Positions 1 through 64,000 of a DNA stretch of 64,000 nt are shown piece by piece. The position numbers and the translations under genes were made by a program. A model generated the notes under the pieces. The model saw only the letters and a list, made by a program, of their open reading frames with translations. It had not been told where the DNA came from and ran no database searches. The stretch lies in NCBI GenBank assembly GCA_036399695.1, contig DASWMP010000294.1, positions 10,193-74,192 on the forward strand, written 5' to 3'. Numbering within the stretch: the first letter of the stretch is position 1; each line of letters opens with the position of its first letter. This DNA comes from Thermoanaerobaculia bacterium. Lineage in GTDB: Bacteria; Acidobacteriota; Thermoanaerobaculia; Gp7-AA8.

Positions 1-1
1 C

Positions 2-136
2 AACGGCCGCACGGCCTGCAATGTGGTGAGCTGGAGCGGCTCGCCCGACCTGAGCGTCAAAGTGCACTGCTTCTACATCCCGGACGGTTCGATGCGCGAC
101 AGCCAGTTCACGGCGCTTGTGACGTTTGCGCCGTAG
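2..136 (+). CDS. C-terminal fragment of a hypothetical protein (partial at window edge)
   Basis: Open frame running in from the window start, ending at TAG 134-136; no recognisable domain. Confidence 0.3.
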   Translation, partial: NGRTACNVVSWSGSPDLSVKVHCFYIPDGSMRDSQFTALVTFAP

Positions 137-255
137 GCGCGAGCGAAGCAGCCGAGGAGGACACGAATGACGTCCGGGACGTCATTCGTGTCCTTGAGAA
201 GACTCGCGTGACGTTACGGCCGTAACTCGCGACCGGTCTGTCCCGTCCACTGACC

Positions 256-771
256 ATGCGTCCTTCATTTCGGATCGTTGCCATCGTCGTCGTCATCGCT
301 GCCGGGGGGTACTTTGTGGCCCATGGGCTGGCCCTGGATGAAGCGTCAGTGCCGGCGCCTCCGCCGGTCGCGGTGACGAGCATCGCGGAGCCGGAGATCG
401 CGGCCATCGAGATGCACGCGCTGCGGCCGCGTGAGACGCGCGACGGACGGAATCTCTTCGCCTATCGCGAGCCGCCGCCCAAGCCGGTCGCGCAAGCCGT
501 CGTGCGGTACGTGGCGCCGCCGCCGGTTGCGCTTGCCGAACCCGTCGCGGTGCAACCGGCCGCGCCGGCGCCGACGCGCTTCACCTGGAAGTACGTCGGG
601 AGCTTCGGGCCGCGGGAGAGGCCGTTCGCGGTGTTCTCGCGCGACGGTGAGGTGATCACCGCCCGCCGCGGTGAGCGCGTGGATGCGCACTTCGTGGTGA
701 AAGCGATCGGCGTTGAGAGCGTGGATGTGCAGCCGCGCAATGAACCAGTGCAGCGGATTCCGCTGGGGTGA
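256..771 (+). CDS. Hypothetical membrane-anchored Pro-rich protein, possibly a PilP/GspC-like pilus or secretion accessory protein
   Basis: N-terminal TM helix (IVAIVVVIAAGGYFVA), a Pro/Ala-rich linker and a C-terminal small beta-rich domain; the PilP/GspC resemblance is from architecture only. Confidence 0.4.
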   Translation: MRPSFRIVAIVVVIAAGGYFVAHGLALDEASVPAPPPVAVTSIAEPEIAAIEMHALRPRETRDGRNLFAYREPPPKPVAQAVVRYVAPPPVALAEPVAVQPAAPAPTRFTWKYVGSFGPRERPFAVFSRDGEVITARRGERVDAHFVVKAIGVESVDVQPRNEPVQRIPLG

Positions 772-776
772 AGCAC

Positions 777-869
777 GATAGGACCAATGGGACAGATGGG
801 ACCGATGGGATGAATGGGAGTCTCCGGTTTCCCCTCTGTCCCATTGGTCCCATCGTTCCCTGGTCCTAC
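777..869. repeat. F2 palindromic repeat (ATGGGAC-type MITE/REP-like element)
   Basis: Inverted repeat GGACCAATGGGACAGATGGGACCGATGGG ... CCCATTGGTCCCATCG between two convergent genes; the same family recurs at 30192, 40882 and 63571. Confidence 0.7.
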
Positions 870-1570
870 CGCTTCAACAAGGCATCAAGAATCGGCGCCC
901 GAAAGTACAGCGCGCCCAGCTTCAACGCCTCTGCCTCATCACCGGCTTCGAAGGTCAGGCTCTTCAGCGTCAGCACCGGCACCTTTTTGAAGCGGCGGAA
1001 GTTCAGCTCCACGTACAGCGGCGTCCCGGGGATCTTCTTCGAGAGCTCCGCCGATGCTGGCGAGACGCCGCGGACGAACTCCTGCACGAGTGCGCGGAGT
1101 TGCGGGTTCTCCGGAATCGCGGCCGTCGTCCAGACGTCGACCCACGCCTGGGGGCCGTACATCAGCCGGTAGCGGGTGGCGTCGACGCCGCCGACTTTGC
1201 CGTGCAGCGGCTTGGCGAGTGTGGCCACGGCGGCGCGCTCGACACCGGCGTTCTTGCCGGCGAGCTTCGCGAGCGTCGGGGCGATCTCGACGACCGGGAG
1301 CTCGACGTAGGCGCGCCCGAGGGGGTTCTCGACCGTGACGAACTTCGCGCGATTCGCGCTGAAGGCGTTGAGCCAGAGCGCCTCGGCGCGGACGCCGCCC
1401 TGATAGACGTGCAGGTCGACGCTGCCGAACTTGCCGAGCCAGGGGAACGGGGCGGACGGATTGGCCTCGAGCTGCAGGTGAAAGGGGCGCGACTGCGCCG
1501 CCGCGGGGCCGGTGAAGGGGAGGGAAACGAACAGCGCGAGTACGGTGGTGGCGATTTTCATGGGGCGCAA
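866..1570 (-). CDS. Secreted hypothetical protein (signal peptide)
   Basis: N-terminus MRPMKIATTVLALFVSLPFTGPAAAQ is a cleavable signal peptide; no catalytic motif recognised. Confidence 0.5.
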   Translation of the reverse strand: MRPMKIATTVLALFVSLPFTGPAAAQSRPFHLQLEANPSAPFPWLGKFGSVDLHVYQGGVRAEALWLNAFSANRAKFVTVENPLGRAYVELPVVEIAPTLAKLAGKNAGVERAAVATLAKPLHGKVGGVDATRYRLMYGPQAWVDVWTTAAIPENPQLRALVQEFVRGVSPASAELSKKIPGTPLYVELNFRRFKKVPVLTLKSLTFEAGDEAEALKLGALYFRAPILDALLKR

Positions 1571-1593
1571 AAAGGGCGGCCTTGCGGCCGCCC
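1565..1593 (-). terminator. Rho-independent terminator downstream of rpoD
   Basis: On the minus strand: stem GGCGGCC-GCAA-GGCCGCC followed by CTTTTTGCG. Confidence 0.5.
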
Positions 1594-1618
1594 TCGGATC
1601 ATACCAATTTCGAAAGTC

Positions 1619-61800: not shown

Positions 61801-61831
61801 CGGCGCCGAAGATGACGAGGAGCGCGCCCGC

Positions 61832-62359
61832 TTACTCCCGCCCGGCGACGCCGTAGCGGTCGTGGAGGATGTTGAGGTGGCGCTGGAAGTGGCCGGCCGC
61901 GATGAAGGCTAAGGCGCGGACGGTCAGTGGTTTGCCGTTGAGGGTGCCGCCGCGGTGCCATGCTTCGTGGGGGAGGCCGGCGAAGAAGAGCGTCGTGGCA
62001 TTGCGGACCGCCACGAGCTCCGCGGTCAGGTCGGCGATGGTGCGGGATTCGAAGTTGGCCTCGGCGACGTAGCCGTCCGGGTCCCAGCGTTTCAGGTCGG
62101 GGTCGCCGCCGCGGGCCAGCACGAGGGCGCGGTACTGGTAGACGCGCTCGGCATCGGCCATGTGGCCGACGACCTGGCGCACGGTCCACTTGCGCGGATC
62201 GTAGCGGTAGGCGGCTTTCTCTTCGCCGACAAGATCCGGGAGGACGCGGATACGCGCTTGCTGGGCGCGGAGGGTCTCGACGACCGGCGCCTGGATGAGG
62301 GAGACGTACATTTCCTGATGCGGGGCATATTCGTCGGAGGCCGGGCGCTGGTCGGGCAT
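61832..62359 (-). CDS. DinB family (DinB_2) protein
   Basis: VVGHMADAERVYQ ... FIAAGHFQRHLNILHD His motifs; 175 aa. Confidence 0.8.
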   Translation of the reverse strand: MPDQRPASDEYAPHQEMYVSLIQAPVVETLRAQQARIRVLPDLVGEEKAAYRYDPRKWTVRQVVGHMADAERVYQYRALVLARGGDPDLKRWDPDGYVAEANFESRTIADLTAELVAVRNATTLFFAGLPHEAWHRGGTLNGKPLTVRALAFIAAGHFQRHLNILHDRYGVAGRE

Positions 62360-62370
62360 CGTGTCGGTCC

Positions 62371-62832
62371 TTAGTGCGCAGGTGTTGCGGCGTCGTCGAG
62401 CTGGCGGAGATAGGCGAGCAGGTCGTCCATGTCTTCGAGGGTCAGGCGGTAGCGGGGCATGGTGCTCTCGAGCTTCTGGCCGCCGGAGTCGAGGCCCATG
62501 GTGATGGCCCGTTTTACGAGTGAACGCGTATAGGGGGGACGGTTCCGGCGTTCCGTGGCCAGCGGTTGGGTCAGTACGTTCCAGCGGATGTTGGCGGGAC
62601 GGATGGCCGCGTCCGGCAGGCCGCGGCCGTCGGGGCCGTGGCAGCTTCCGCAGGGGACGACGGTGGCCGGGACCTCGAGATCGTCGCCGCCGAGGAGTGC
62701 CGTGACCTTACGGCCGGAGAGGGGTTCGCCCGTACGAAAGAGGTGCTCTCCACGCCGCTGGCGCGCGGCTGGTTCGTCACCGGCGGCGATGGCAGCGAAC
62801 AGCGTGACGAGGAGGGCGAGGCGTGCGATCAC
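62371..62832 (-). CDS. c-type cytochrome (mono-heme)
   Basis: Heme-binding CGSCH; signal-anchor VIARLALLVTLFAAIAAG; GTG start inferred, overlapping the SCO1 stop (GTGA). Confidence 0.65.
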   Translation of the reverse strand: MIARLALLVTLFAAIAAGDEPAARQRRGEHLFRTGEPLSGRKVTALLGGDDLEVPATVVPCGSCHGPDGRGLPDAAIRPANIRWNVLTQPLATERRNRPPYTRSLVKRAITMGLDSGGQKLESTMPRYRLTLEDMDDLLAYLRQLDDAATPAH

Positions 62833-63443
62833 TGGCCGCCTGTCGGCGAGGCGGGAGCCGCCTTGACCACCGGTGCCGCGGGCGGCGTGTCGTTGGCCAC
62901 GGTGGCGACGACCTGCCACACCTCTTCGGACGGGGCGATGGCCAGCGCTTTCTTCCAGAGGCCGGTCCGGTCGTTGCCGGCGATGATGATGTTCTTGTGC
63001 GCGTCGCGCGTCTCGGCGTACTGGCCGAGCTTCGTGAGCGCCGCGTCCACCTGGGCCTTGGTGCCGGTCAGAAAGTACCAGCCCGGCTTCGCACCCATCC
63101 GCTTCGCGTACGCCTTGAGCGCGTCGGGGGTGTCGTTCTTCGGATCGACGGTGATGGAGACGAGGATGACGTCCTTGCCGATCCGGTCGCCGAGACGATT
63201 CTGCAGGAGCAGGAAGGTCTTCGACATGATCGGGCAGCTTCCGGTGCAGGAGGCGAAGAACGAGTTGATGACGACGGTGTGATTGCGGATCAGGTCGTCG
63301 TACAGATCCACGCCGCGCCCGTTCTGGTCGACCAGCGGGATGTTGGCCAGGTAGTGCTCTCCGGCAAAGGCCGTGGTGGCGCCGAGCAGGAGGACGAGCG
63401 TAAGGAGCAGGGACGCGTAGCGGAAAAATCGGGAAGCCATCAA
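62829..63443 (-). CDS. SCO1/SenC family copper chaperone (thioredoxin-like)
   Basis: Signal anchor; CxxxC motif in ASCTGSCP and a downstream His (ETRDAHKNIII); 204 aa. Confidence 0.8.
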   Translation of the reverse strand: MMASRFFRYASLLLTLVLLLGATTAFAGEHYLANIPLVDQNGRGVDLYDDLIRNHTVVINSFFASCTGSCPIMSKTFLLLQNRLGDRIGKDVILVSITVDPKNDTPDALKAYAKRMGAKPGWYFLTGTKAQVDAALTKLGQYAETRDAHKNIIIAGNDRTGLWKKALAIAPSEEVWQVVATVANDTPPAAPVVKAAPASPTGGQ

Positions 63444-63570
63444 TTAAGGAGTGACGCGAGCGGGGAAATCCCTACCCCATGGTATCGGCTCCGATTTCAG
63501 GAATGACCGTCTGACCAAGGCTTTTCGGCCAGGCGGCTACAACGCTGCCGCCCGCTAGCGGGCTTCTCTA

Positions 63571-63631
63571 TTTGTCCCATAGGTCCCATCCGTCCCATAG
63601 GTCCCATGGTTCCGGGTGCGTCCCATGCGAG
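63571..63631. repeat. F2 repeat, CCCAT-arm only
   Basis: TTTGTCCCATAGGTCCCATCCGTCCCATAGGTCCCATGGTTCC. Confidence 0.5.
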
Positions 63632-63679
63632 ACCGCTCACAAGCGGAAGCTCCGGATCGTCTTGCTTGCAGGACTGAAT

Positions 63680-64000
63680 GGACTTCGTTCGACTGCAGCC
63701 GGAGCAGAAACGATCGTTCGAAGAGGACGGCTTTCTCGTCGTGCGCAAGGCGCTCGACGGCGAGACCGTCACGGCGGTTCGTGAGGCAGGCGACCGGATC
63801 GCTGGCTCGTTTCTGACAAAGCCGCCGGTCGATGACAAGCCAGCGTACAACTATCTCGATCAGCGTCCGGGGCTCTTGCGGGAGCCGGCCATGCGCGCGC
63901 TGGTGACGCATGCGCCGACCGTGTCGCTCATCGTCCAGCTCCTTAGCCCGAACATCCACCTGCACTCGACCGCGCTGATCTACAAGCGCCCAAGTCCGAA
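63680..64000 (+). CDS. Phytanoyl-CoA dioxygenase (PhyH) family protein, N-terminal part (runs off the window)
   Basis: ATG at 63680; MDFVRLQPEQKRSFEEDGFLVVRKAL is the typical PhyH N-terminus. Confidence 0.55.

Follow-up and report, generated by a model that had tools for sequence, protein, structure and literature searches.

The intergenic DNA of the 64,000-nucleotide stretch analysed here, which is referred to as the window and corresponds to positions 10,193 to 74,192 of contig DASWMP010000294.1, has probably been colonised by several families of small hairpin repeats that copy, decay, and replace one another. They would represent a set of elements similar to repetitive extragenic palindromic sequences (REPs), to REP doublets forming hairpins (REPINs), and to miniature inverted-repeat transposable elements (MITEs), present in a new lineage. 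The window is chromosomal DNA of an uncultured soil bacterium of the Thermoanaerobaculia (Acidobacteriota), with a G+C content of 65% and dense coding. The REP-like nature of the repeats, which the original prediction had proposed, is borne out by the REP anatomy of one family, F3, together with a REP-associated tyrosine transposase (RAYT) found beside it in another genome, by orthologous gaps that differ between two related genomes, and by a copy of another family, F2, which lies in frame within the gene of the helicase Lhr.

All seven families proposed, F1 to F7, recur far in excess of the expectation from dinucleotide-preserving shuffles. The cores of F1, F2, F5, and F7 are matched 8, 13, 3, and 9 times (0.02, 0.03, 0.08, and 0.09 expected, resp.), the F3 22-mer six times (0.00 expected), the F6 core five times (0.5 expected), and the end of F4 ten times (1.9 expected). 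A recount agrees with the copy numbers noted before, namely three copies of F1 plus a variant at position 39637, five of F2, six of F3, six of F4 including one partial copy and one variant, three of F6, two of F7, and three loci of F5; P5, P31, the F4 sister or variant, and the F1 variant come in addition. An inverted-repeat scan yielded arms of 18-69 nt at the places concerned. On folding, all full-length copies gave long hairpins (z-scores between -3 and -13.6 against shuffled sequences), and only the two one-armed copies of F6 did not. The view that the families are unrelated in sequence has to be relaxed, because F1, F5, and F7 have 7-nt periodic arms in common (9-nt in F2) and F4 has a sister family. 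Their occasional nesting is real, with F4 lying in the apex of F5 (53527-53782) and P5 (157 nt) within F7 (5373-5675). On the curated gene map, there are 32 elements with a combined length of 3.2 kb; they make up about 5% of the window, and they take 39% of its intergenic DNA, which amounts to 7.8 kb.

The family best understood is F3, which occurs at four sites of the window.

21069-21168: F3 head-to-head REP doublet, with units at 21069-21090 (- strand) and 21147-21168 (+ strand); 22-mer exact or with one mismatch, GTGG/GTAG heads toward the centre, z = -8.2
27268-27294, + strand: F3 single REP, ATGTAG followed by GGACAGAC-ACTCCT-GTCTGTCC; 22-mer match and head
33723-33790: REPIN-like doublet of head-to-head F3 REPs, lying where the OPT and DinB genes converge; 28-nt arms, 100% complementary, z = -12.9
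40995-41021, + strand: F3 single REP between two F2 pieces; 22-mer match and head, the entire gap being absent in a related genome

The F3 unit consists of (AT)GT[AG]G followed by GGACAGAC-ACTCYT-GTCTGTCC, forming an 8-bp stem and a 6-nt loop. A GTAG or GTGG head is present on all six copies, head-to-head doublets are found at two of the four sites, and the 6.2 kb to the left of the window contain a tail-to-tail F3 pair, about 6 kb out, as well as a hairpin made of CAGAACG heptamers. Based on the GT[AG]G head, the 8-bp stem, the conserved loop, the inverted doublets, and a flanking RAYT elsewhere, F3 is a classical GT[AG]G-headed REP. In a scan of one genome per species, for which the loci listed are a lower bound, the exact 22-mer was detected in at least 74 stretches and, among the matches listed, in more than 10 phyla. 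The hosts among these matches include Acidobacteriota (Terriglobia, Thermoanaerobaculia, and Blastocatellia), Verrucomicrobia, Planctomycetes, Kiritimatiellia, Binatia, Kapaibacterium, WOR-3, Stahlbacteria, Hydrogenedentes, and others. The G+C content of the F3 loci ranges from 42% to 66%, several relatives carry multiple copies at their loci, and we estimate that about 0.1 chance occurrences of the 22-mer would be expected in the whole collection. GT[AG] precedes the first G of the stem in 94 of 112 perfect F3 copies across loci, and the stem also occurs in compensatory variants, i.e., GGACAGGC/GCCTGTCC, GGTCAGAC/GTCTGACC, GCGCAGAC/GTCTGCGC, and GGCCAGAC/GTCTGGCC.

The transposase was sought by tblastn, using a RAYT consensus and subsequently 120 RAYT homologs. 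A protein of 158-160 amino acids that matches NCBIfam NF047646 (REP-associated tyrosine transposase; 87 bits, cutoff 80) and Pfam Y1_Tnp is encoded at a Kapaibacterium locus (L010) and at L085/L086 (an 89%-identical copy). At L085, the RAYT gene (1501-1983) has F3-type REPs on both sides (approximately 1449-1476 and 2016-2045), GTAG-GGTCAGACACTCCTGTCTGACC upstream and an exact F3 unit downstream, with the heads pointing outward, which is the layout of a REPtron; L010 is organised alike. Two homologs that are 56-58% identical have a different GTAG REP, GGCCCGACTTCAGTCGGGCC, in their flanks. With the motifs DHVH, WQ, and YMRNNP, and by our reading of the published motif table, the L010/L085 RAYT looks closest to subclass 2.7, which is patchy across phyla and flanked by GT[AG]G REPs (PMC6006769). 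The occurrence of one exact REP 22-mer in more than 10 phyla suggests that a REP-RAYT pair may be travelling horizontally. A scan of viral contigs gave no match for F3, and in the literature searched its sequence met only unrelated primers, with no matching REP in the supplements of PMC3733652 and PMC6006769. In the source genome, a REP-associated tyrosine transposase (HUH/Y1) whose gene lies elsewhere would mobilise F3 in the form of single-stranded DNA. As a separate observation, arrays of 21-nt tandem repeats with unrelated units are located at 20873-21040 and 27051-27197, each just upstream of an F3 copy.

A second group comprises F4, its sister family, F6, P5, and P31.

45555-45642: F4 double-hairpin element, 8 nt past the stop codon of a SurA-like gene; z = -7.6, with an F2 hairpin at the site in the related genome
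48338-48412: F4 element, located 17 nt after the stop codon of mfd; end match, unit alignment, and folding, with an F2 half-array at the site in the related genome
53605-53712: F4 element nested in the F5 apex; end match and unit alignment, the related genome having neither F4 nor F5 at the site
58942-59027: F4, best-preserved copy, over the stop codon of an 80-amino-acid open reading frame (ORF); 43-nt arms, z = -12.1
21202-21262: partial F4 with one complete and one truncated REP-like unit; end match and alignment
14273-14427: F4 sister family with GCGGCAGC/GCTGCCGC stems and ATGTAA heads; 69-nt arms, alignment, z = -11.8
23356-23566: F6 full palindrome over the MltG stop codon; inverted repeat and core matches, z = -10.9
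51887-52010: F6, left arm and centre only; core matches, z = -1.9
58420-58530: F6, left arm and centre only; core matches, with an F2 hairpin at the site in the related genome
5450-5606: P5, a palindrome of about 157 nt, TGTCATCCCGAGCG...GGGACCTGGG...GGTGGCAC, inside F7; 60-nt arms
31627-31737: P31, a single-copy 111-nt hairpin between the Lhr and OPT genes; 48-nt arms, 92% complementary, z = -13.6

F4 measures 85 nt and pairs two units in inverted orientation, both of them small palindromes in themselves, GCGGTGGC...GCCACCGC, with the ends AATCTYGGAGTGCGGTGGCG; the stems of its sister family represent a compensatory change relative to F4. Its hairpin, GGAGTGCGGTGGCG-loop-GCCACCG, is found in at least 120 metagenome stretches, often in the same inverted pairs. 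The window units carry GTAG in five and GTAA in five of 11 cases, at their inner ends and 4 nt off the stem. Assignment of F4 as a GTAG REP was considered and dropped, since the GTAG stands 4 nt from the stem foot and is missing in most metagenome relatives; F4 is a member of a widespread REP-like family and not demonstrably a GTAG REP. Near-identical inverted P5 pairs, TGTCATCCCGAGCGTAGCGAGGGACCTGGG...GGTGGCAC, are present in at least five metagenome loci among the F4 matches listed, and a shorter relative of P5, TCATCCTGAGCGAAGCGAAGGACC, is also common. F6 is a 180-nt palindrome with a small local hairpin in each arm, of which the two other copies retain one arm. F4, F6, P5, and P31 are short and non-coding and possess inverted arms of 30-69 nt, in the manner of the terminal inverted repeats of MITEs. 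The F4 family with its sister, P5, and F6 have the same build as F3, with small palindromic units arranged in inverted pairs, and most likely they would be moved in trans by similar enzymes. F1, F2, F5, and F7 would be dispersed families as well, the arms of which also vary in unit number.

These last four families have arms of tandem units and are referred to here as periodic-arm hairpins.

8082-8217: F1 hairpin with GGTTGTT heptamer arms; inverted repeat and Tandem Repeats Finder (TRF), z = -8.8
12232-12335: F1 hairpin between convergent genes; inverted repeat and TRF, z = -9.7
19024-19114: F1 hairpin in the RND efflux operon, separating its MFP and AcrB genes; inverted repeat, z = -6.6
39637-39728: F1 variant with CGTTKTC heptamer arms, after the rplI terminator; inverted repeat and folding, with an orthologous copy in the related genome
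775-856: F2 hairpin with ATGGGACNN nonamer arms; inverted repeat, z = -6.3
30191-30280: F2 hairpin in frame within the Lhr helicase ORF; translation, the segment missing in 15 homologs
40886-40950: F2 short hairpin; z = -3.2
41038-41093: F2 half-array with one arm only; repeat units and core matches
63558-63621: F2 half-array; repeat units and core matches
25048-25176: complete F5 hairpin, the arms made of GGGSCCN heptamers, in a gap between divergent genes; inverted repeat and TRF, z = -7.9
21296-21354: F5 half-element abutting the stop codon of a TonB-like gene; core match
53527-53782: F5 hairpin that the nested F4 divides, with the right F5 arm forming the end of the SLT ORF; inverted repeat, homology to the relative ending at 53785
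5373-5675: F7 hairpin with CAGTTGG/CGGTTGG heptamer arms, enclosing P5; inverted repeat and core matches
36946-37077: F7 hairpin over the DUF5916 stop codon; inverted repeat and core matches, z = -6.5

The arms of F1, F5, and F7 consist of 3-5 tandem heptamers (GGTTGTT, GGGSCCN, and CAGTTGG, resp.), those of F2 of nonamers. Period-7 arrays with inverted partners were reported by TRF at 8098/8171, 12241/12311, 19083, 25054/25149, 36949, 39700, and 53528/53753. The F1 copies have a common apex, GGTGCTGCGCTC...AGCGGAGCAC, with the same mismatch in each, and the F2 ends GAACGAT...ATCGTTC are common to the window copies and to five contigs of the related genome, named DASVEE. CAGAACG heptamer hairpins, as seen just outside the window, also occur in DASVEE, and similar hairpins with other 7-, 9-, or 10-nt units are present in loci of Pyrinomonadaceae, Blastocatellia, Terriglobia, and Thermoanaerobaculia. 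A single apical motif for all periodic hairpins was rejected, for only F1, the F1 variant, and, weakly, F2b have it.

Turnover of the elements can be followed in DASVEE (GCA_036380735.1), a Thermoanaerobaculia metagenome-assembled genome (MAG) whose locus L207 is syntenic with 37.9-58.9 kb of the window. The mfd proteins of both cluster at ≥90%, and the genes are approximately 73-85% identical at the nucleotide level. Among nine orthologous gaps, one shares an element, two are filled only in the window and one only in the relative, four hold different families, and one is without a listed element. The shared element is the F1 variant after rplI, which has four units per arm in the window versus three in DASVEE (39637-39728 versus L207 ~21640-21730). 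The SLT-VWA gap is occupied by F5 and its nested F4 in the window and by neither in DASVEE, with homology ending at window position 53785; the gap between the rhomboid and methyltransferase genes holds F2, F3, and F2 in the window, while the genes overlap in DASVEE. Conversely, the xerC/marR gap is empty in the window and carries an F2 array in DASVEE. At four sites just past a stop codon, DASVEE carries F2 throughout, and the window carries F6 (DinB_2), F4 (mfd), F4 (SurA), and F6 (VWA). Between hyp158 and the peptidyl-prolyl isomerase gene, both genomes show a similar terminator-like hairpin and no listed element. The xerC/marR gap of the relative (L207 2963-3248) harbours an additional palindrome, CCCCTCTCCCCGGCC...GGGGAGAGGG, which is absent from the window and hints at more families in the relative. 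A tandem array comparable to those upstream of F3, with units such as CGAAGAAATCATCGAACTCGA, adjoins an F2 hairpin in DASVEE (L207 16222-17296).

Insertion into a coding region is exemplified by F2 at 30191-30280. It lies in frame in the 1416-amino-acid Lhr ORF (27370-31620), between the DEAD_assoc and WH3 domains, and adds about 21-26 residues (roughly ENDGTDGTDGSPERSPIGPIGPIGPIG) that are missing in 15 homologs; the 9-nt period of F2 preserves the reading frame. Two further ORFs run into repeats. The last ~21 codons of the SLT gene (53718-53782) are the right arm of F5, and the rhomboid-like ORF can be read through F2, F3, and F2 to a stop at 40918 (40918-41093); the called C-termini of both are therefore altered.

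Several results weigh against colonisation by mobile repeats. By tblastn with RAYT homologs, neither the window nor any of the 73 remaining F3 loci yielded a tyrosine transposase gene. Nor was there a match to the 120 RAYT homologs in 120 F4 loci (731 kb), where distant Y1 classes were not searched. In most metagenome relatives of F4, CTTT/AAAG takes the place of the GTAG of the window. No consistent target-site duplication was recognised in the flanks of the F4 copies, with TA on both sides of one copy only; Y1-type elements are not expected to produce such duplications. The F1 27-mer had no match in the metagenome collection, which also lacks the window's own copies and thus the source sample, and the spread of F1 shows only in the three window copies, in the variant at 39637, and in the orthologous copy of that variant in DASVEE. 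Finally, the periodic arms could be growing in place by slippage instead of transposition.

The periodic-arm hairpins are the least understood part of the repeat set. It may tentatively be considered that they form a distinct, so far undescribed class of structured repeats in Acidobacteriota, with arms of 3-6 tandem 7-, 9-, or 10-nt units, family-specific ends or apexes, spread that includes insertion into an ORF, and arms co-varying in unit number. If so, they would be made or moved by a mechanism not based on RAYT. A little less probable, and in our opinion rather doubtful, is that F1, F2, F5, and F7 are not transposed at all, slippage of tandem units in place combined with intrastrand template switching keeping their arms symmetric. 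This would account for arms built of 7- or 9-nt units, for the existence of half-arrays, for the many unit sequences seen in hairpins across Acidobacteriota loci, and for the F1 variant after rplI, in which both arms have shifted together between four and three units. It does not readily explain why non-periodic parts are common within a family, such as the F1 apex with its constant mismatch and the F2 ends in two genomes. F2 moreover appears at new sites, i.e., in Lhr and where the other genome has another element, and movement or repeated seeding would therefore be required.

The placement of the elements bears on a further alternative. The statement that they fill almost every gap longer than 80 bp was too strong; among the 34 gaps that reach 80 nt or more, 23 (68%) are occupied. 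Their predicted preference for gene 3' ends holds, with 21 of 27 gaps that include a 3' end occupied versus two of seven divergent gaps, and in 19 of 26 element-gene pairs the element starts between -10 and +32 nt relative to the stop codon. This could be taken to mean that the hairpins are primarily functional RNA structures at 3' ends (terminators, mRNA stabilisers, or ribosome-stalling elements) under selection, with the family likeness being secondary, which is regarded as unlikely. Tight post-stop placement and very stable folds would fit, as would the four orthologous sites with hairpins of different families, where any hairpin might do. In E. coli, REPs confer stability on upstream mRNA and attenuate transcription. 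The roles of E. coli REPs are listed in PMC3733652.

The RNA or regulatory role considered plausible in the original prediction nevertheless gained no support. The elements are not followed by a T-run (0-4 T per 8 nt, versus 5-6 at the rpsU and xerC terminators of the window) and hence lack the hairpin with direct U-tract of an intrinsic terminator. Among 15 elements transcribed from one side only, just three fold more stably on the transcribed than on the antisense strand. Rfam 15 gave no match for the elements at the gathering score and, at E-values up to 0.1, only miRNA-precursor-like matches and three other weak ones, all far under threshold. In addition, sequence identity among copies goes far beyond structural need, elements also lie within an ORF, in divergent gaps, and nested in one another, and at three sites one of the two genomes has no element. 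Given that 68% of the gaps are filled, chance alone would lead both genomes to be occupied at about half of the sites. Post-stop placement fits tolerance or insertion preference as well as function. In the case of colonisation, the elements would persist mainly within the first tens of nucleotides past stop codons, where they are tolerated; they may serve incidentally as 3' hairpins and may exert a secondary effect on transcripts, as is the case with E. coli REPs.

That the repeats are a local duplication or an artefact of MAG assembly can practically be dismissed: the source is a MAG and short-read contigs end inside repeats, but JGI metagenome 3300034139, European Nucleotide Archive (ENA) assembly ERZ27253094, and the Logan contigs of SRR10954982 are 100% identical to the window, repeats included, the copies are flanked by unrelated housekeeping genes, and members of these families also turn up elsewhere, on other contigs and in other genomes. 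The short-read contigs break in or beside repeats at window positions 21092, 23298 (JGI), and 61927, and Logan contigs end at 12248, 12263, 14344, and 53632; the elements at these breaks are the F3 doublet, F6, F1, the F4 variant, and F4. Such breaks are expected, because the repeats are multi-copy.

The asymmetric copies (four of F1, two F3 singles, and three of F6) have one orientation on the + strand within each family, and the cumulative GC skew climbs over most of the window. Y1-type elements are subject to a replication-strand bias of insertion, and the uniform orientation together with the GC skew may reflect such a bias, the numbers being too small to judge.

GTAG-tagged REPs and RAYT transposases were reportedly described by Nunvar in 2010, and REP families are usually species- or genus-specific. 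GTAG REPs, REPINs or bacterial interspersed mosaic elements, and RAYT (TnpA-REP) have been treated by Bertels & Rainey 2011 (PMC3116915), Di Nocera 2013 (PMC3733652), and Quentin 2018 (PMC6006769), where genomes with several REP families, inverted doublets, placement 3' of genes, and intragenic copies are documented. The window repeats resemble these systems in the F3 unit, a 22-27-nt imperfect palindrome with a 5' GT[AG]G head and both head-to-head and tail-to-tail doublets, in extragenic placement after genes, in the number of families, in intragenic copies in repair or helicase genes, and in a RAYT flanked by the same REP in another genome. They differ from them in that the exact F3 22-mer extends over more than 10 phyla among the matches listed and in that F4 is without a general GTAG head. 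Whether the density is unusual, as had been claimed, is a relative matter, as multi-family REP-rich genomes are documented (PMC3733652), whereas a load of about 5% is about five times that of E. coli, in which REPs make up "up to 1%" of the genome (PMC6006769).

MITEs such as the Correia elements (also NEMIS) are likewise short and non-coding, have terminal inverted repeats, form hairpins, and are dispersed in intergenic regions, sometimes nested; unlike MITEs, the elements show no target-site duplication (F4 flanks) and no parent insertion sequence with matching ends in the window. Intragenic palindromic repeats in repair or helicase genes are known from REPs of Opitutus terrae and from Rickettsia palindromic elements (PMC3733652). 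The F2 palindrome in Lhr compares with these as an in-frame insert of the type of ~20-30 residues, but it is a single case here and, as a hairpin with a period of 9 nt, differs from the REPs tagged with CGTC or GTAG. In Acidobacteria and Planctomycetes, class 3 TnpA-Y1 is associated with hairpins that have a CnGA foot and an atypical secondary structure, with approximately 600 copies in Solibacter usitatus (PMC6006769). P5 and P31, from the same phylum, contain CCGA or CTGA followed by weak palindromes of the GAGCG type. This is a resemblance only; no gene of class 3 was encountered (the search of the F4 loci covered RAYT homologs and not distant Y1 classes), and the supplement of PMC6006769 had no match. 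The CnGA-foot resemblance of P5 is a possible lead.

For the periodic-arm hairpins, the nearest counterpart is the STRR (short tandemly repeated repetitive) sequence of filamentous cyanobacteria, which consists of intergenic 7-bp tandem units, forms hairpins between or after genes, and has no known function (PMC2670836). F1, F5, and F7 share with it the tandem 7-bp intergenic units and the hairpins. In contrast to STRR, the periodic-arm hairpins belong to the phylum Acidobacteriota, their units are more varied (GGTTGTT, CAGTTGG, GGGSCCN, CAGAACG, and the 9-nt ATGGGACNN), and the arrays are regularly paired as long hairpins with family-specific apexes or ends. The heptamer units themselves presumably differ from those of cyanobacterial STRR. 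A literature search on heptamer hairpins outside cyanobacteria yielded nothing useful, and if the hairpins are a class of their own, the STRR phenomenon would be extended to a second phylum.

The window repeats are a heavily loaded instance of documented REP-type selfish DNA and not a new type. The identity of F3 and its exactness across phyla, the widespread F4 and P5 families, and the heptamer- and nonamer-armed hairpins in Acidobacteriota go beyond the literature searched. To our knowledge, REP/REPIN biology is known almost wholly from Proteobacteria; here, judged from the window, a Thermoanaerobaculia genome has about 5% of its DNA and two-fifths of its intergenic DNA in hairpin repeats of at least ten families. 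Comparison with the sister genome makes it possible to see, site by site, where elements were gained, lost, or replaced, with the post-stop position being repeatedly re-used by unrelated families. F3 offers a REP of exact sequence across phyla that is tied to a RAYT, and the heptamer- and nonamer-armed hairpins are repeats without a known mobilising enzyme. In practice, such repeats fragment short-read assemblies and lengthen called ORFs (the C-termini of SLT and rhomboid, the insert of Lhr), so that annotation of MAGs is affected.

Housekeeping genes of the window include rpoD, dnaG, mutS2, rpsU, the RND efflux operon, ruvX-mltG, lhr, rpsF-rpsR-rplI, mfd, and a xerC/D-like gene. A scan for tRNA and tmRNA was negative throughout the window, and no insertion sequence is contained within its 64 kb. 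No convincing gene was recognised at 59028-59723, a segment of lower G+C content 3' of an F4 copy, nor at 61322-61831, which resembles a decayed gene for a membrane protein on the - strand in which several frames are broken. Apart from the repeats, the two genomes also differ in gene content. RadC (window 44001-44732) has no counterpart at the syntenic position in L207, and a gene of the SPM family is situated between VWA and mfd in DASVEE (L207 8476-9651) and, in the window, at 60290-61321. A perfect 18-bp palindrome, AGGACACGAATGACGTCC / GGACGTCATTCGTGTCCT, occurs once in the window (158-194), without a T-run and 21 nt past a stop codon.

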